Of a stretch of DNA of 64,000 nucleotides, positions 218 to 63,745 are shown piece after piece. This DNA comes from Octopus vulgaris (Eukaryota), in NCBI GenBank assembly GCA_951406725.2, contig OX597840.1, positions 16,492,001 through 16,556,000 on the forward strand, written 5' to 3'. Made by a program: the position numbers and the translations under genes. Every line of letters begins with the position of its first letter. Position 1 is the first letter of the stretch. The notes beneath the pieces are model-generated. The model made no database searches. It was given only the letters and a program-made list of their open reading frames with translations, and was not told the origin of the DNA.

Positions 218-337
218 CTAACACAGCTTGCTGTTCATTCCCATGCCAGAACAATGGGATATGTTCACCCACTGGGCGAAATGGTTATATTTGCAATTGC
301 CAGAACAGTGGTTACTATGGCACCAATTGTGAATACG
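218..337 (+). CDS. PTGS: Cyclooxygenase (PTGS/COX)-like gene, exon equivalent to PTGS2 exon 2 (EGF-like domain)
   Basis: T-rich tract + ctag acceptor (AG 216-217), donor gtaagt at 338. Translates (A)NTACCSFPCQNNGICSPTGRNGYICNCQNSGYYGTNCEY, like COX NPCCS.PCQNRG.C......Y.CDCTRTG.YG.NC. Phase 1-1, 120 nt. Confidence 0.93.
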
Positions 338-3773: not shown

Positions 3774-3914
3774 CAACTTGGAAGCATTGGTTCCTTAGCT
3801 TCTTCCAATTGTTACCAGAAGACATTCACTCACTTCTTGTGGGCATTCCAGGATTTGGATGTTTACTAAATATGTTACCCTGTCGGAGCCTCATATCAAA
3901 ATTTCTGATGCAAT
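3774..3914 (+). CDS. PTGS: COX-like gene, exon equivalent to PTGS2 exon 3 (membrane-binding helices)
   Basis: Long pyrimidine tract + tag acceptor, gtaaga donor at 3915. Translates ATWKHWFLSFFQLLPEDIHSLLVGIPGFGCLLNMLPCRSLISKFLMQ (amphipathic, aligns to the COX membrane-binding domain). 141 nt, phase 1-1. Confidence 0.85.
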
Positions 3915-5270: not shown

Positions 5271-8200
5271 TCATCATCATCATCATCGTTTAATGTCCGC
5301 TTTCCATGCTAGCATGGGTTGGACGGTTCAACTGGGGTCTGGGAAGCCAGGAGGCTGCACCAGGCTCTAGTCTGATCTGGCAGTGTTTCTACAGCTGGAT
5401 GCCCTTCCTAACGCCAACCACTCCATGAGTGTAGTGGATGCTTTTTACGTGCCACCGGTACAGGTGCCAGTCAAGGCTGGCAAACGGCCATGATCGGATG
5501 GTGCTTTTTACGTGCCACCGGCACCGAGAGCAGACGAAGCTGGCAACGGCCACGAATCAGATGGTGCTTTTTACGTGCCACCGGCACGGAGACCAGGCAA
5601 AGCTGGCAACGGCCACGAATCGGATGGTGCTTTTTACGTGCCACCGGCACGGAGGCCAGTCACGGCGGTGCTGGCTACAGCCACGTTCGGATGGTTCTCT
5701 TACGTGCCACCGGCACTGGTATCACAGCTACAAATTCCATTGATGTTGATCGAATACGATTTTGATTTTCACTTGCCTCAACAGGTCTTCACAAGTGGAG
5801 CTTTGTGTCCCAAGAAGGAAAGGAATGCATAAGTGGCCTAGCTACATCCCAGGTAGAGGCCACGGGATTATGGCCTCACTTGTCCTGCCGGGTCTTCTCA
5901 TGCACAGCATACTTCCAAAGGTCTCGGTCTCTAGTCATTTCCTCGGTGTGACCTAAAGTTCAAAGGTCGTGCTTCACCACCTCTTCCCAGGTTTTCCTGG
6001 GTCTACCTCTTCCGGAGGTTCCCTCAACCGCTAGGGTGTGGCACTTTTTCATACAACTATCTTCATCCATTCTCGCCACATGACCATACCAGCGCAAATG
6101 TCTCTCTTGCACATCACAACTGATGCTTCTTAGGTCCAACTTTTCTCTCAAAGTTCTTACACTCTGTCGAGTATGAACACTGAAATTACACATCCATCGG
6201 AGCATACTGGCTTCATTTCTTGTGAGCTTACGCATATCCTCAGCAGTCACGGCCCATGTTTCACTGCCATGTAGCATAGCTGTTCGTACACATGCGTCAT
6301 ACAATCTGCTTTTTACTCTGAGCGAGAGGCCTTTTGTCACCAGCAGAGATAAGAGCTCTCTGAACTTTGCCCAAGCTATTCTTACTCTAGCAGTTACACT
6401 TTCAGTACCCCCACCCCCACTACTGACTTGGTCACCTAGGTAATGGAAGCTATCAACTATTTCTAGTTTTTCTCCCTGGAATGTGGCGAAAGATGGTCTC
6501 TGCGTATTTTCAGTGTTTATTGCTCCTGAGCATCTGCCACATACAAAAACTATCTTCCTAGTTAGCCTTCCTTTGACATTGCTGCACCTCTTATGTGTCC
6601 ATAGCTTACACTTGGTGCATCTTATAGAGTTTCTACCTATGCCTTTTCTACAGATCGAGCAGGGCCATCTACCTGAAGGTGTTTGTGATTTATTTACCTT
6701 CCTACTTATTAGAACTTTGGTTTTAGCTAGGTTGACTCTAAGGCCCTTCGATTCTTATTCCTGCTTCCACACCTGAAACCTCTCCTCCAGTTCTGATAGT
6801 GACTTAGCAATTAGGGCAAGGTCATCAGCATAGAGGAGCTCCCAGGTGCATCCTGTCTTGAATTCCTCTGTTATTGCTTGGAGAACTATGATAAATAGGA
6901 GGGGGCTGAGGACTGAATCTTGGTGGACCCCAACCTCTACCTGGAATTCTTCACTGTACTCGTTGCCAACCCTCACCTTACTAACAGTGTCCCTGTACAT
7001 GGCTCGTACAGCTCTCATTAACCATTCATCTATCCCTAGTTTCCTCATTGACCACCAGATAAGGGATCGGGGGACCCTGTCAAAGGCTTTCTCCATGTCA
7101 ACGAAAGCCAGGTACAGAGGTTTATCTTTGGCTTGGTATTTCTCCTGCAGCTATCTCACCAGAAATATGGCATTAGTGGTGCTTTTCCCTGGCACGAAAC
7201 CAAGTTGACTCTCTCCCTAATCAGTTGGGCTATGACCCTCTCCGTAACCTTCATTACCTGATCCAACAGCTTGATACCTCTGTAATTATTTGTATCTAGG
7301 GCGTCACCTTTACCTTTGTAGCAGTTGACTATTATGCTGCTACACCAGTCATTGGGTATGACTCCTTCGTGTATCACCTGTTTAACTATACGGGTGACTA
7401 GGCCATAGCCGACACTGCCAGATATTTTGAGCATCTCTGCAGTAATTCCTGATGGGCCTGGGGCTTTCCCTGTCTTCATGCTTCTAATTGCCTTAACTAC
7501 CAAAGAACTGTCAACTTGGATAGCTGGTCCCTCTGTTGGGTCGATATTCAGCAGACTCTCTTTATCCCATTCATTTTCTTTATTCAGCAATCTTTCATAG
7601 TGGCATCTCCAAACCTCTCTCTTTGCATCCTCATTTAGCGCAAGTGAACCATCATCCCTGCAAACACATTTCTCTCCTACCACATCATGATTCTCTCTCA
7701 CACACTGTCTTGCAACAGGAAATACCTCCAGTCTTTGGTCCTCACGGTGCAGAACATTAGCAAATTTTTTTTTATCTGCTTCCCCTCTGGCTAAATAAAC
7801 CTGTCTCCTAGCTTCCCTTCTGGCAGTCTGATACAATTCCCTGCTACCTCCGTTCTTCCAGTCCCTCCAAGCCTATTTCTTTTGTCTAATAGCCCTGTCA
7901 ACCACATTGTTCCACCACCATGTTACCTTGGGTTGAGATGGGACTTTGCTCCATCCACAGATCTGGTCGGTGGCTGTCAGCAGATTGTCCCGTAGAAATC
8001 TCCAGTTGTCTTCCACATTAAGTGAAGCTATATCCCCTTCTATTTCGCCAAAGGCATCGAGTAGTATGTCTCTAAATCTCTGTCCATTTGCAGGATCTTT
8101 AAGCTTCCAGACCCTTCTCCTCCAAGCTGGTCTTCTTCTGGGCAGCCATTTAGCCCTGATCCTGAAGTTGCTAACTACTAATCTATGTTGAGGAGTACAT

Positions 8201-9836
8201 TCTTCGCCTGGGAAGGTTTTGGCATTTATAAGCAGCCCTCTTTCCCTCTTTCTGGCGAGGATGTAGTCAATCTGGCTAGTGTGTCTGCCAGAACGGTAGG
8301 TGACTAGGTGAGAGGTGGGTTTCCTGAAGTTGGTATTGCAAACCATAAGGTCATTTGCATAGCAGAACTCCAGCAGCCTGGTTCCCTCCTCATTGCGAGA
8401 ACCAAAACCGTAGCCTCTATATACGCCATGGAAGCCCCCGACATGCAGTCCAACATGTCCATTGAAGTCACCTGCCACAAAGAGAAGGTCCCTGTCATTT
8501 GTCAATGAGGTAGTCTGCAATAGGGTGTCGCAGAATCGGTCTTTCTGTCCTTCGGGTAGCCCCGGTTTAGGGGCATATGCCGAGATGATGGTAGCTGAAC
8601 TATGGTGAAGCACTAATCTAATCTTAAGTACTCTGTCACTTACTCTGACTACCTCAATTACCTTATCTACCCATTTCTCCACAAGAAGTATACCCACGCC
8701 CCCGACCCCTGTCAGTGTTCCCTGCCCAGAAAATCTTGTACCTGTGTTCCTTGCCTGTGAGGAACCTAGCGGAACCTCCTCTCCACCTTACTTCTTGGAT
8801 GCAGCACAAATCCACACGTCTCCTTTCAAGCAGCTCAACAATCTCACCAGACCTACCTTTCAATGTGCCAACATTGAGTGTGCCAACTCTGAGGGTGTGG
8901 GAGGTGTGGGCCTCTGAGACCCTGGGATGAGGGATAGCAGTGTCATGTACCTGAAAAGAAAGCTTGCATTTGGCAGATTTCATACGGAAATACTAGACTA
9001 CAACCTACATACACTACACAGTTTTTGCGCTATATGATCACATAAACCTTACGTAGGCGCGTGGGTGGGATAGACAAGTAAGACAGAGGTAGAAACTTCC
9101 AGTATTGGTGGAGGGGGTGGGTGGGCGGGCGTGCCGCGAAAGAGGAATGAGGTTGAAAGTCAAAATTGCTTAGCTGCTCATTTTCTGAAATCCGTGTTTT
9201 ATCAGCAGGGTAGATGAAAATCGAGTAGAGGAAAGAAGCAGAGCTTACACTAGTTTATATAGAGTTAGGGATTAGCGGGGGTGGGGTGGAGTTGGTGTAT
9301 TAGGTGGTAAATCGAAGAGGGAGAGAGAGAGAGAGGGACAAACACGAGAGAGAAGAGTATTCGTAGGGAATTCTCTGCAACAAAAATTACTGAAACAGCA
9401 AATGCTGAAATCGTGAGATGGAGTTGAAAGTTGAAAACTTTGGGATTTGAGGAAAACATAATTTAAATAAATGAAAACCGCAGTGGTAAGTCGAAAGAGA
9501 GAGAGTGAGTCAGAGAGGGGGGGGGTCAGGTGTTAAGTAAGTAATAAATACGACACGAGGAAGAAAGAATATTTTTTGTTGGAAATTTGGGAGAATTAAA
9601 CAAGTCCTGGAATAACGAAAGGATAACCTTGAAATAAAAGAGGAATAGAAAAATGCATGATCTTAAGACAGACAGGAAGCTATCAGTGCTATGTTTACAA
9701 GATAGAGAAATAGATAATAGAGAACGAAAGGGAAGGGGTTAGGGTTACGAATCTACGCTTAAACAGGAATGGACCAGGTTGAAAGTCAAAATTTCTAAGA
9801 TGCTTATTTTCTGAAATCCATGTTTTATCAGCAGAG
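5271..9836 (-). mobile_element. RTE-clade LINE, near full length but decayed (APE + RT, 3' UTR, (GAT)n tail)
   Basis: Minus ORFs 8663-8983 (GTLNVGTL..CIQE), 7873-8697 (AGDFNGH, QIDYIL, QHRLV), 7156-7836 (KAPGPSGI, NYRGIKLL), 6755-7096 (EKAFDRV, LYADDL), 5960-6340 (GSETW, RGRPRKTW), broken by stops and frameshifts. 3' UTR with ~59-bp tandem units at 5438-5720; tail (CAT)n on + at 5271-5287. Confidence 0.92.
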
Positions 9837-10120: not shown

Positions 10121-10317
10121 ATGTTTTTTATGTTTTTATGTTTTTTATGTTTTTATGTGATGGGTAAATTGTTGCCATTTTATATTTTCAATTTCGCACA
10201 TGCATATTGTTTGTTTTTGATTTTGTTGACTACACAGTATAGTAGGGTCAGCTGGGCACCATCTGTAAAAAAACAGCACCATGACACAATTTACTGTGCC
10301 AAAAATTTGGAAATGAC

Positions 10318-11017
10318 TGCTTGGCATTCGTGCTGGAAGCTCCAATACAAACATTCAGATTGTTGGGTGTCAATCTATGTCCCCAAAACATGTGTCAAGA
10401 ATGGTAAAGATCAAACATCCAGTCAACATAATGGCATTTGGAGTGATCGCTAGTGATGGTAACATTATGCCTCCCTTCATCTTCCCACACAGCCTCAGAC
10501 TCAACATGGAGGCCTACATCAAGTGCCTGGAGGAGATAGTGCTGCCCTGGGTCAAGAGGGTGGTTGCTGGAAGACCCTATGTCTGGCAACTGGACTCTGC
10601 ACCATGCCACACAAGCAGTAGAATCCAGTCATGGCTTTCAGACAATTTCTGTGACCACACCACCCCTAACATCTGGCCACTTAAATCCCCAGACTGCAAC
10701 CCCCTTGATTATTATGTGTGTGGCCCAGTTGGACGAGAGACCAAAAAAACTCGTAACACCAACGGTGAACAGAAGATACAGATTATGGTAGCATTCCCCA
10801 ACTTAAACAAAGAGACTGTCCAGAAGAGTTGCAGGAGATTACAAAGTTGTTTGGAGGCCATGGTTGAAGCCAATGGCGATTTTATTGAATAAATTTACTC
10901 TTCAGAATTTCAAGATCATTTTATGTCATTTTGGTAAATATATTTGTTAAAAGGAGATGTCAATGTCATTTTCATTTTTCCATAATTTAGTTGACAATTT
11001 ATTCACCGCACCCCGTA
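10318..11017 (+). mobile_element. mariner-like (maT/DD37D-type) transposase 3' fragment with right end
   Basis: ORF 10377-10892: KHPVNIMAFG..WQLDSAPCH..WPLKSPDCNPLDYYV. Ends TTATTCACCGCACCCCG-TA. A related end lies on the minus strand at about 49625-49790. Confidence 0.8.
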
Positions 11018-11148: not shown

Positions 11149-11689
11149 CACACATGTACATCCATTTCATATACATGCTCATACATTTTTCACTTTCTCC
11201 TCTCTCACTTTAAAAAAAAAGTAACAGGTGATTTTCAGGATAAAAATTGTTTAAAAAAAGCATCTACTTATGTAAAATTCACACACAAAAGTTTTCAGAA
11301 TTGCAAATATGGCCAGCAGGTAAAGGTTTTCAATTTAGTTGCATTTAGCATAATTTCACTTACTTATGATTAGATTTGATTAAATTTTCATTAGATTTAA
11401 GCTCTTATTTTTCTGTAAATCCTATTCTGACATTAAATGAGTCAACTTCTGGTTGTAACTCTCTAAGGGGAAAAAAATAAAAAAACAAAAAAAAAAAAAC
11501 CGCAGACTTTTTGATGTACACTCACACTGACAAAGAGAAATATCTTTTTTGTGGAGATTGCTTATAGTTTCATCATTTCAGATTTTATTCTATTTCATTT
11601 ATTTGACATTTGCAATCTCTTTGTTGTTTTCATTTAATTTTCTTAATACAACATTACAAAAATAAGCACTAATCAATTATACCATGTGG

Positions 11690-12475
11690 CAAGAGATGGG
11701 GGTCATTGTGGTCAAAAGATGCCAAAAGGTTCTGGGAAGAAGCAAGGGTAAGGAGACAACAAGAAACAACTGAGATAATGGCAGAACGATGGCAGGATAA
11801 CAGAGTCACGCAACAAAGAAGAAGGCAAGGAGAGACTGAGGAAGATAGGAATGCACGTCTCCAGGATGTGAGACAAAGAACAAATAGCAGAAGACTTGCA
11901 GAAATGTCTGAGATGAGGGCTGCATGACTCTTAAACAACAGGGTGAGGAAAGAAAGAAGGACAGAGCGAGCAAGGGAAGGAAATGGATGCACTCTTTCTG
12001 CTGATGTAGGTGTGATGAATAAAATATGTTCTTACTGTCATGCATTCTTATTCCATGGTGAAACTGCAAATTTCTGCTGCAGGAAGGGAAAAGTTTATAT
12101 TGGCAGTTCACAACCTCTATCGAATGAACTTGTCCACAGTGACGACGATCTTTGCAAAAGAATTCAGGAAGAACATCAGACACTACAACTGCCTCTTCCA
12201 AATGACATCATTCGATGGGAAAGAAGTTATTCCTAAAAGAAACATATGGAATCCCTCCGTTGTCATTCATGGCCAAATCCATCACTATATCAGACAGTTA
12301 CTCACAATTTTCTTCAGACATTAAATGTATTACTATTGTTTGGATAGTTCCAATTAAATAACTCCAGAAGTTAGGTTAAATACATATTCATGCATAAGTA
12401 CCATGAATTTTGATTCTGCAAACTGGCAAACAATTCCGTGAATACTTTACCAGGCAACGCTGAGTAGTAAGTCTA
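11690..12475 (+). mobile_element. Helitron Rep/helicase N-terminal fragment (degenerate)
   Basis: Arg/Glu-rich repeats (ETEEDRNARL), MNKICSYCHAFLFHGETANFCCRKGKV zinc motif and FRKNIRHYNCLFQMTSF...IHGQIHH typical of Helitron ORFs. Degenerate 3' hairpin (CCAGGCAACGCTGAG...CTA) near 12450. Confidence 0.75.
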
Positions 12476-15466: not shown

Positions 15467-16860
15467 CAGTGGGGGGAAATAGATATTCATACATGTCAAA
15501 ATTCTTTATTTATTTAATTTTTAATGAACATAAATGGGATATACCAATACTATATTTGCATACACATGCATAAACTAAGAATATGCAAAACAAACTAATA
15601 AATTATAGTAACTTAGGAATTTATATTCAATTATAAATATTTAGGGGTGAAAAAAGTATTCGTACAGAACATAAATAACTGATAATTCTGATTTAATACT
15701 TCGTAGCATAACCATTATTCAGTTCCACTTCAACTAATCTCTTCTTGTAATTCTTAATCAATGACTTGCATGTTTCTTTAGCAATTTTTTCCCATTCTTC
15801 TTGACAAATTTTCTTCAAATCTGGATTGCATGTTGGGGCTTTTGAATGAATTTTAATTTTCAAATAACGCCACAAATTTTCAATGGGGTTCAAGTCAGGT
15901 GACTGGCTTGGCCATTCTAATAATTTTATATTGTGATCGACAATCCATTTTTTGGTAGACTTCGCCGTGTGCTTAAGGTCGTTATCCTGTTGTAAAACCC
16001 ACCCTTCACAAAGCTGGAGCTTTTCTATAGAGTCCCATAAATTATTGTTCAAAATATTTAGGTACATCTCTGCATTCATTCTACCATCTATCACATGTAA
16101 ATTGCCATTACCATTTGCAGAGAAACACCCCCACGCCATGATGTTGCCACCTCCAAACTTTATGGTAGGAATTGTGTTTTTCGGTGATAAGGCGGTACCA
16201 TCTTTCCTCCAAACATGGCTATGCGAATTTCATCCAAACATGGCTATGCGAATTTCATCCAAACAATTCAATTTTTGACTCATCTGTCCATAAAACATTT
16301 TCCCAGAATGTATATCTTTATGTTCATAAACAAATTTTAAACGGGCATCTCTATGCCTTTTAGTCAACAGCAGAATTTTTCTAGGAGAGCGTGACTTCAG
16401 TTCATTCCTATGAAATTCATTGCTGATTGTTCGTAGTGTAACACTAGTCCCTGAAGCTAACAAATCTTCTTGCAACTCCTTTCTGGTGATCATTGTGTTT
16501 TTTTTTATTCTTCGCTTCATTTTTCTTAAAGATCTAGGGGAAATCTTGCATGGTGCACCAGATCTTATTCTGTTTTCAACAGTTCCCGATTTTTTATATC
16601 TCTGAATAAATGAAGATATGGTAGAAAATGGAATACAAAGGGTCTCTGATATTTTCCTGTAACTTTTACCTGCTTTCCACTGTTCAATAATTAAGTTTTT
16701 CACTGTATTTGTGAATTCTTTACTTTTCGCAATTATTATGATACTACTTTATGCTGTCTCAGTGCTGAATGAAGAAGCTAGTGTTTTGACACTAAAAAAT
16801 GACAACTGATAAGATTATTGGAATAAACGAGAAAGTACGAATATTTATTTCCCCCCACTG
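15467..16860 (-). mobile_element. Full-length Tc1-like DNA transposon (DD34E), transposase frameshifted
   Basis: TA TSD (15465-66, 16861-62). TIRs CAGTGGGGGGAAATA.ATATTC.TAC. ORFs 16230-16703 (HTH, GKSYRKIS) and 15693-16139 (QQDNDLKH, SPDLNPIENLW); LWTDESKIELFG out of frame; a 25-bp tandem duplication at 16208-16257 disrupts the ORF. Confidence 0.93.
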
Positions 16861-22261: not shown

Positions 22262-22390
22262 TCCGTATCGGTGGATATATACACACATTAAGTTACTCCA
22301 TGACCGTTACCAATGCCAATGATGAATCAATGAGTCTTCAAATCTTGCCGTCAGTGCCAATGAATTGCCCAACACCCCTGGGTGTAGTAG
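22262..22390 (+). CDS. PTGS: COX-like gene, exon equivalent to PTGS2 exon 4
   Basis: ttttcag acceptor, gtactg donor at 22391. Translates FRIGGYIHTLSYSMTVTNANDESMSLQILPSVPMNCPTPLGVVG, with the COX LP.VP..CPTP.GV.G motif and an Arg120 equivalent. 129 nt, phase 1-1. Confidence 0.9.
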
Positions 22391-24831: not shown

Positions 24832-24989
24832 GTGAATCGATTCTTCCACCAATTGATGATGTAATGCCCCTGTTTATGCGGTCAATGTTTAAACCAGATC
24901 CAATGGGTTCTAATCTATTGTTTGCCACCCAAGCTGACCACTTAAGCCATCTCTTTCTCAAGACTGGTTTCTCTAGTCTCTCTGAAGTG
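24832..24989 (+). CDS. PTGS: COX-like gene, exon equivalent to PTGS2 exon 5 (distal heme helix)
   Basis: ctcag acceptor, gtaaga donor at 24990. GESILPPIDDVMPLFMRSMFKPDPMGSNLLFATQADHLSHLFLKTGFSSLSEV vs COX [26 protein letters not shown]. 158 nt, phase 1-0. Confidence 0.93.
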
Positions 24990-43797: not shown

Positions 43798-43881
43798 TCT
43801 GCCATGGGTTACGTGTATGGTGAAACAGACAGAGACAACTATTTGTTACGGAACCACACCAATGGTAAACTGAAGAGTCAG
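43798..43881 (+). CDS. PTGS: COX-like gene, exon equivalent to PTGS2 exon 6
   Basis: Long CT-rich tract + gtcag acceptor, gtaagg donor. SAMGYVYGETDRDNYLLRNHTNGKLKSQ vs COX [28 protein letters not shown]. 84 nt, phase 0-0. Confidence 0.92.
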
Positions 43882-48129: not shown

Positions 48130-48819
48130 TGTGAAAGTGTTCAGAATTTGTCCATAGAGCAGCGGAAGAATATTATTTTCTCAGATGAGTCATCCTTTAC
48201 CTTATTTCTGACCAGCAGCTGAGTATATGTTTGGAGACAGCCAAAAGAAGCATTTGACTCAGACTGCCTTCTTCCAACTGTTATTCATGGAGGAGGATCT
48301 GTGGTGATCTGGGCGGGTGCTATATCCTGGAAATCCACAGGCCCTATGGCTTCCCTTCATGGCACAATTAATAGTCAAGACTATTTAAGCATTTTATCTG
48401 ATCAAATTCATTCTATGGTTGCGGAACTGTTTCTGGAGGGAAACGTAATCTTTCAGGATGATAATGCACCAATTGACACAGCTAAAGTTGTTACTGAATG
48501 GCATGAAGAGCATTCTAATGAAGCTGAACATCTTATCTGGCCACCACAGTCCCCAGATCTCAATATTATTGAACATTTATGGTGCATTTTAGAAAAACAA
48601 ATAAGGTACCGATATCCTCTACCGTCATCACAACATGAACTAGAGACTGTTTTAGCTGAAGAATGGACAAAAATTCCTTTGGAAACAATTCAAAGTTTGT
48701 ACGAGTCCTTACCTCATAGAATTCAAGCTGTAATTACTGCCAAAGGCAGTCCTACCCCATATTAAAATAAATTTGCTTGAAATTTTAAGGTGTTACCATT
48801 ATTTTGTCCAACCCCTGTA
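48130..48819 (+). mobile_element. Tc1-like transposase 3' half with right TIR
   Basis: IIFSDESSFTLF, FQDDNAPID, WPPQSPDLNIIEHLW, KGSPTPY; ends ATTTTGTCCAACCCCTG-TA. Confidence 0.85.
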
Positions 48820-55317: not shown

Positions 55318-55564
55318 ATCATAAATGGTGAGGAGTGGCCTCCCTTTGTATTTGAAAGCCCGGTTGACATGCAATATCCTACGGGATTACCCCAAACATC
55401 CCAATTTGCTCTTGGGTATGAATATTACAGCTTACATAGTGGTCATCTGATGTGGTCAACCCTGTGGCTCCGTCAGCACAATCTGTTCTGTGATATCCTG
55501 ACTGTTGAACATCCAGACTGGACTGACGAACAGCTGCACCAAGCCGCAAGAACTGCTGTCTTAG
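55318..55564 (+). CDS. PTGS: COX-like gene, exon equivalent to PTGS2 exon 7
   Basis: ttcacag acceptor, gtaagt donor. IINGEEWPPFVFESPVDMQYPTGLPQTSQFALGYEYYSLHSGHLMWSTLWLRQHNLFCDILTVEHPDWTDEQLHQAARTAVL (WLR.HN..CD.L..EHP.W.DEQL.Q motif). 247 nt, phase 0-1. Confidence 0.96.
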
Positions 55565-59000: not shown

Positions 59001-59287
59001 CTATGAACATAAAGATTATTGTGGAGGAATACATTGCCCACATGGCCCGTTACTACTACAATTATGTCTACACTCCGGAGGCTGTATTCCAAGATGGTGC
59101 CCAGTGCAAAGAATTCATGCTGGAAGAGTTCAAGCTGCTTTTACATTGGCACCAAATGTTACCAGACCAAATTGCCTTCAATGGAACCGCTTACGACATG
59201 AAAGACTTTCTCTTCCAGTCACAGTTTCTCATTCAATTTGGAATCGGTCCTTATGTTGAGGCCCTCATTAAACAGTCTGCAGGAAGG
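59001..59287 (+). CDS. PTGS: COX-like gene, exon equivalent to PTGS2 exon 8 (proximal His; Tyr385 position reads Leu)
   Basis: cccag acceptor, gtaagt donor. AMNIKIIVEEYIAHMARYYYNYVYTPEAVFQDGAQCKEFMLEEFKLLLHWHQMLPDQIAFNGTAYDMKDFLFQSQFLIQFGIGPYVEALIKQSAGR aligns without gaps to COX ETIKIVIEDYVQHLSGY...EFNTLYHWHPLLPD...QIAGR. 287 nt, phase 1-0. Confidence 0.96.
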
Positions 59288-63600: not shown

Positions 63601-63745
63601 GTCACTCACCATAACCATGGTCCTGCAACTATACTCCATGCCAGACAAGCCCTACTCCATGCCAGGACATTACGACTCCAGTCCTACAACAATTACCTCA
63701 GGCATTTCAAGTTGAAAACTCCAAAGACGTTTATTGAGCTGACAG
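63601..63745 (+). CDS. PTGS: COX-like gene, exon equivalent to PTGS2 exon 9 (gene continues beyond the window)
   Basis: aacag acceptor, gtaagc donor. VTHHNHGPATILHARQALLHARTLRLQSYNNYLRHFKLKTPKTFIELTG vs COX ...R.M.YQSFNEYRKRF.LKPY.SFEELTG. 145 nt, phase 0-1. Confidence 0.93.

Follow-up and report, generated by a model that had tools for sequence, protein, structure and literature searches.

An octopus cyclooxygenase paralog in tandem with the canonical gene retains the lipid gate and heme ligands and carries leucine in place of the catalytic tyrosine

In the cyclooxygenases (COX), Tyr385 (residue numbers throughout are those of ovine COX-1) bears the radical that initiates the cyclooxygenase reaction (PMC12756642, PMC9235837). 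The Y385F/Y385F enzyme is reported to have no COX activity (PMC12756642), and a value of 0% is given for Y385F elsewhere (PMC7329864). The COX heme oxidises both Tyr385 and Tyr504 (PMC13049297), His207 and His388 are required for peroxidase function (PMC6372189), and the G533A substitution misaligns the substrate such that COX activity is abolished and the peroxidase spared (PMC12756642); Gly533 itself sits where the substrate groove ends. Additionally, the N144 glycan site is needed for the activity of shrimp COX (PMC8062024), and residues 126-127 and 541-543 cross-link across the COX-2 dimer (PMC12756642). COX-like proteins with no Tyr385 are found in prawns, a sipunculan and several insects (Macrobrachium XP_064099544.1; Aspidosiphon ALG96637.1, named 'cyclooxygenase a-like'; and records from Ladona, Timema, Blattella, Aquatica and Rhynocoris).

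The window analysed here, a stretch of 64,000 nucleotides of the Octopus vulgaris genome (contig OX597840.1), is spanned by a gene for a further protein of this kind, whose public records call it prostaglandin G/H synthase-like without comment. Mapping of a protein record to the genome yielded ten exons with a 593-codon open frame and GT-AG ends at all 9 introns, and the exons overrun the window by 3.5 kb on the 5' side and 3.2 kb on the 3' side; the translation of this frame differs from the mapped record in one residue and two extra Met. The features of this paralog are as follows, in window coordinates and on the forward strand.

3.4-3.5 kb before the first window position, +: exon 1, with the start codon and the signal peptide (protein mapping)
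218..337, +: exon 2, EGF-like domain (mapping; AG/GT ends)
3774..3914, +: exon 3, membrane-binding helices, His90 kept (mapping, alignment, model)
22262..22390, +: exon 4, Arg120 kept (codon 22264) (mapping, alignment)
24832..24989, +: exon 5, distal heme helix with Gln203Asp (GAC, 24936) and His207 kept (CAT, 24948)
43798..43881, +: exon 6, GVD motif replaced, Asp229Ala
55318..55564, +: exon 7, roof of the heme pocket (Tyr291, His295) and the kept EHPDW..EQL.Q loop (319-330)
59001..59287, +: exon 8, Tyr348 (59030) and Tyr355 (59051) kept, 364-379 rebuilt, Lys382, Leu385 and His386-Trp387-His388
59141..59143, +: TTA, Leu for catalytic Tyr385 (reading frame, alignment, runs, protein records)
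59150..59152, +: CAC, proximal heme ligand His388, kept (alignment)
63601..63745, +: exon 9 (mapping)
2.8-3.2 kb past the window end, +: exon 10, Glu524, Ser530, Gly533Ser, rebuilt 535-553 segment and stop

In exon 4 the 121-150 loop behind Arg120 is rebuilt and 5-6 residues shorter, with loss of the N144 glycosylation site, and 6-7 residues are deleted after Thr212 in exon 5. In two of four sequencing runs (X9 and X16; no run is recorded as RNA) the end of exon 7, exon 8 and the start of exon 9 are joined, and since the contigs of these runs pass from exon 8 into both neighbouring exons, a spliced form exists. Isoform X2 of O. bimaculoides skips the 129-base exon 4 in frame and thereby loses Arg120, the rebuilt loop and Cys159. 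An (ATG)n run in exon 1 gives the signal peptide a poly-Met stretch whose length varies among records, and one public record comprises only the last 259 residues, from an internal Met in exon 8, and is probably a split gene model. Intron 3 houses what we take to be a broken non-LTR retrotransposon-like element with endonuclease and reverse transcriptase frames (5963-8992, reverse strand); other intronic frames are presumably Tc1/mariner-like transposase fragments (15696-16748, reverse strand; 10317-10889 and 48223-48762, forward strand), and short frames at 11673-12321 (forward strand) we assume to resemble a Helitron Rep fragment.

The original prediction held that Tyr385 is truly replaced by leucine, with the caveat that a compensating pair of homopolymer errors might have produced the codon. 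The stretch concerned, EEFKLLLHWHQM (59123-59158), is translated E-E-F-K-L-L-L-H-W-H-Q-M, with CAT TGG CAC directly 3' of the TTA codon, and an ungapped alignment of exon 8 with solved COX-2 chains (E 5e-17) places Leu opposite Tyr385. Among the 20 runs containing exon 8 we examined 4, from 4 studies and 3 coded organisms: in each of them a single contig covers the exon with the TTA codon of the window, 0 indels and identical letters over 59062-59175, the only differences within the exon lying at 59035, 59061, 59176, 59194 and 59212. Furthermore, EFKLLLHWH stands in all 4 protein records of the cluster, which come from O. sinensis, O. bimaculoides (two isoforms) and O. vulgaris. As four runs and three Octopus species show the same letters or the same LLLHWH, the replacement is upheld and the caveat refuted, and a sequencing artefact in the CTTTTA run is ruled out. 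The supporting arguments of the prediction stand as well: the neighbouring residues have diverged, N382K, N375E and R376F all being confirmed in the alignment, and A-to-I editing would turn TTA into TTG, which still codes Leu, thereby ruling out rescue by editing. At 59035 the window has a silent T against C in all four runs, which is either a private allele or an assembly letter. Across 177 homologues with His388, drawn from 205 hits among 211 proteins, residue 385 is Tyr in 171 (many of them bacterial), Leu in 4, Phe in 1 and Gln in 1, and all four Leu385 homologues are the octopus paralog itself.

On the same strand, a canonical COX gene extends from about 70.5 kb to about 24.5 kb before the window, its 3' end lying about 21 kb before exon 1 of the paralog. 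It carries EFNHLYHWH, matches the named octopus COX (local matches 84-100%) and has its exon breaks at places matching those of the paralog, with which the canonical octopus COX is 38% identical. Genome searches for exon 8 returned only two COX-like matches, namely these two genes (8 and 47 candidates scored). As the canonical gene adjoins it upstream, the paralog is a tandem copy of octopus cyclooxygenase, and a loss of cyclooxygenase in octopus is ruled out. In the best careful tree (13 rows, other long-branch rows left out) the paralog falls beside octopus and cuttlefish COX (57/49) on a branch of 2.4 changes per site; a test of a sister position to Octopus COX alone ended in borderline rejection (p-AU 0.040). 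An atlas search recovered PTGS clusters only, and homologue and representative searches, which were word-limited or one-per-cluster and hence do not imply absence from squid and cuttlefish, recovered no orthologue outside Octopus. With an An_peroxidase (PF03098) score of 118 bits against a curated cut-off of 25, the paralog belongs to the peroxidase-cyclooxygenase superfamily; its EGF Pfam hit is below cut-off, as is that of the canonical enzyme.

A structural model based on a 150-row alignment has a pLDDT of 86.8, low at residues 123-134 (a 14-row alignment gave 41). It matches COX-2 with TM 0.84 and Z 45 over 535 residues, and COX-1 and COX-2 with Z 44-45 across residues 27-565, against Z 31 for the next family; the paralog is thus predicted to assume the full COX fold. 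This match, together with the disulfide cysteines given below, places it by descent in the PTGS/COX family. In comparison with 12 canonical COX rows it keeps 93 of 140 invariant positions (66%). These include R120, H204, H207, T212, Y348, Y355, F381, H386, W387, H388, G526, S530 and L534, as well as H90 and E524, and thereby both heme ligands (proximal His388, distal His207) and the gate of Arg120, Tyr355 and Glu524 with Ser530 (5/5 gate positions). Retention over all channel positions is no higher than the background of 66%. All ten disulfide cysteines (36, 37, 41, 47, 57, 59, 69, 159, 569 and 575) are likewise kept; the paralog has 16 cysteines against 12 in the canonical enzyme, the extra ones being in the membrane-binding region (3774-3914) and at COX position 373 (exon 8, 59001-59287). 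The losses are Y385L, G533S, Y504I, Q203D, D229A, N382K, F205L, V228S, N375E, R376F, I377M, N144D and I523Q, Gln203 being invariant in 12/12 canonical rows.

Divergence is high in four rebuilt segments, 121-150, 213-231, 364-379 and 535-553, which were drawn post hoc on the alignment and in which 8 of 39 conserved positions are kept versus 134 of 200 elsewhere. Two of them, 121-150 and 535-553, contain the positions corresponding to the COX-2 interface residues 126-127 and 541-543 (PMC12756642). The other two we take to be part of the dimer interface as well. Outside 319-333, only 4 of 28 putative interface positions match octopus COX, versus 15-22 in other canonical enzymes; within the 319-333 loop, the paralog keeps 7 of 11 putative contacts. 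The WKPSTFGG motif is absent, and the 120-129 crosstalk loop and the 541-543 loop are both rebuilt by sequence. In the heme pocket 9 of 23 putative positions match octopus COX, versus 15-18 in other canonical enzymes, and the paralog shows new histidines at 295 and 447 along with F210L.

Because Y385F is inactive and G533A abolishes COX activity, the loss of cyclooxygenase activity (EC 1.14.99.1) is a safe inference, and the paralog is very probably cyclooxygenase-dead. Without a tyrosyl radical there would, with similarly high probability, be no oxygenase turnover and no prostaglandin G2, the synthesis of which is predicted to be absent given that both Tyr385 and Gly533 are missing. An L385Y revertant, which the original prediction had proposed to assay for a gain of activity, would by itself probably not regain cyclooxygenase activity, since Tyr385Leu belongs with a coherent group of further changes (Q203D, D229A, Y504I, G533S and the four rebuilt segments). 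What the protein might do instead is suggested by the residues that it keeps. His207, His386, His388 and the gate are dispensable for the fold, being lost in other Tyr385-less proteins, and their retention despite the long branch therefore points to use. We propose, with a probability of roughly 0.45, that the paralog is a membrane-anchored peroxidase which binds both heme and fatty acid and operates independently of COX. His388 would hold the heme, His207 would serve as the distal base, and His386 and Thr212 would lie near the propionate; we see even chances that peroxides are reduced there, the most plausible substrates being lipid hydroperoxides such as those made by the neighbouring COX; with Tyr385 and Tyr504 gone, both tyrosines that are oxidised by the COX heme would be absent. 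Arg120, Tyr355 and Glu524 would catch the carboxylate of the fatty acid, the channel being altered at its far end by G533S, F205L, V228S, N375E and I377M, and the rebuilt interface loops would block pairing with canonical COX, leaving a monomer or the paralog's own homodimer. A peroxidase with a lipid channel is favoured because His207 and His388, which other dead copies drop, are retained here and because Tyr385 and Tyr504 are gone. Against it stand Q203D, the changed pocket and the lost N144 glycan site: with 9 of 23 pocket positions matching and His295 and His447 newly present, the heme pocket may have become unsuited to peroxide chemistry. In COX-2, mutation of Gln203 reportedly removes most of the peroxidase activity.

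The main rival, which we regard as possible though somewhat unlikely, is that the paralog is a non-catalytic pseudoenzyme that binds a fatty acid or oxylipin, perhaps with heme or metal, as a sensor, carrier or sink. In its favour, the heme pocket is reshaped by Q203D, N382K, F210L and the new His295 and His447, and the gate is fully kept while the far end of the channel is altered as if for another ligand; yet the mere holding of a ligand would not need the distal His207, which is lost in 10 of 11 other Tyr385-less proteins and kept here together with H386, H388 and T212. Use of both the heme site and the lipid channel would explain the whole pattern of retention, including the heme histidines, Tyr348, Trp387, Ser530 and the gate, if the protein were still an oxygenase or isomerase that places its radical on Tyr348, Trp387 or the new Tyr291 and makes a different oxylipin. 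This we consider improbable, since Y385F COX is inactive despite having Tyr348 and Trp387 (PMC7329864, PMC12756642) and Tyr385 is described as common to COX and the fungal and bacterial dioxygenases (PMC13049297), besides being present in 171 of the 177 homologues with His388.

The tandem position beside canonical COX raises another idea, that of a dedicated allosteric subunit which pairs with the neighbouring enzyme, senses fatty acids via Arg120 and tunes its catalytic partner. In COX-2 the Y385F/native dimer keeps >90% of Vmax with the dead subunit as Eallo, and G533A/native has near full activity (PMC12756642); the paralog is naturally changed at both positions, and its gate, EGF domain and 319-333 loop are retained. 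Octopus would then have split the roles of the COX dimer between two genes, with a hard-wired allosteric paralog as the first natural counterpart of Y385F/native and the rebuilt loops as the crosstalk path, a scenario that we rate as quite unlikely. If the paralog paired with an unchanged COX, its surface would be expected still to fit that enzyme; instead, no more than 4 of 28 positions match, the 120-129 loop is rebuilt and WKPSTFGG is gone. The allosteric idea misfits this rebuilt surface because the neighbouring COX has kept its own. A complex prediction for canonical COX 22-527 with paralog 30-523, run without alignments and with the C-termini cut, scored 0.00 twice and weighs neither way.

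That the gene is a mere artefact or a decaying pseudogene is scarcely credible. The CTTTTA run could host errors and the identity to the neighbouring COX is only 38%, but all 4 runs and all 4 protein records agree, the frame is intact, silent changes exceed replacements and conservation equals that of the true COX. O. sinensis and O. bimaculoides are identical at 569 of 591 residues of the paralog (96.3%), the corresponding values for canonical COX between Octopus species being 589-590 of 612 (96.2-96.4%). In exon 8, a single exon, comparison with run X16 gave 1 replacement in 225 sites and 4 silent changes in 60 (ratio 0.07, Fisher p 0.008), or p = 0.03 with 3 silent changes once the private silent letter of the window is dropped. 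These sequence comparisons indicate that, after far-reaching divergence, the paralog is now as tightly constrained as the canonical enzyme. None of the 19 species differences falls in the rebuilt segments (COX 33-583; 71 positions; about 2.5 expected), which is only suggestive.

Our literature search found no paper on the octopus paralog; Havird 2015, whose title mentions low-identity COX homologues, may list it. Work on cephalopod analgesia has so far aligned the canonical XP_014768109.1 only (PMC9953149). As the NSAID-binding gate and Ser530 are kept, the paralog may be a second NSAID target in cephalopods. Its database label of prostaglandin-endoperoxide synthase is probably wrong. More generally, it represents a natural separation-of-function experiment, under selection, on a major drug target, with a predicted loss of the oxygenase, the heme ligands and lipid gate kept, and the dimer surface rebuilt. 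A function as peroxidase or lipid sensor would mean that the COX fold serves a purpose beyond making prostaglandins; a function as allosteric partner would make COX subunit crosstalk testable on a natural heterodimer.

With PTGS1 and PTGS2 (COX-1 and COX-2) and octopus COX (XP_014768109.1, QHX41555.1) the paralog shares the signal peptide, EGF, membrane-binding and catalytic domains, the predicted fold (TM 0.84), the ten cysteines, His207/386/388 and Arg120/Tyr355/Glu524/Ser530. It differs from them in Tyr385Leu, Gly533Ser, Tyr504Ile, Gln203Asp, Asp229Ala, the lost N144 site, the four rebuilt segments, an LSEF rather than SNEL end and an identity of 35-38%. The PF03098 peroxidases, such as myeloperoxidase, lactoperoxidase and DdPoxA, share with it a heme peroxidase fold lacking the radical tyrosine (Z 25-31), but are only 16-18% identical to it and have neither EGF nor membrane domains. 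At what we take to be the acidic covalent-heme-link positions of these peroxidases, the paralog has Ser206 and Leu294, the acidic residues being absent. Like the engineered Y385F and G533A subunits of COX-2 (PMC12756642), it combines the gate and heme ligands with a (here predicted) lack of cyclooxygenase chemistry, but it is a natural separate gene, its interface is unlike that of its would-be partner COX, and Gln203 is changed too.

The Tyr385-less invertebrate proteins are, like the paralog, derived from COX, with Tyr385 replaced and Gly533 mostly replaced as well. The octopus paralog shows, by alignment, an unusual pattern of keeping the gate and rebuilding the interface. The other proteins are 25-33% identical to it, and a quick 29-row tree with long branches does not join them to it. 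With their dimer-surface motifs kept, the prawn, sipunculan and insect proteins are better candidates for dead partners than the octopus gene. In an 18-row alignment, 11 other Tyr385-less rows keep 0-1 of the 5 gate positions, with H207 in 1 and H388 in 3, and most of the rows covering the segment keep the W.P.TFGG interface motif that the octopus paralog lacks. They have lost the gate and kept the interface, whereas the octopus paralog shows the reverse, with all five gate positions and the histidines kept and the interface rebuilt.
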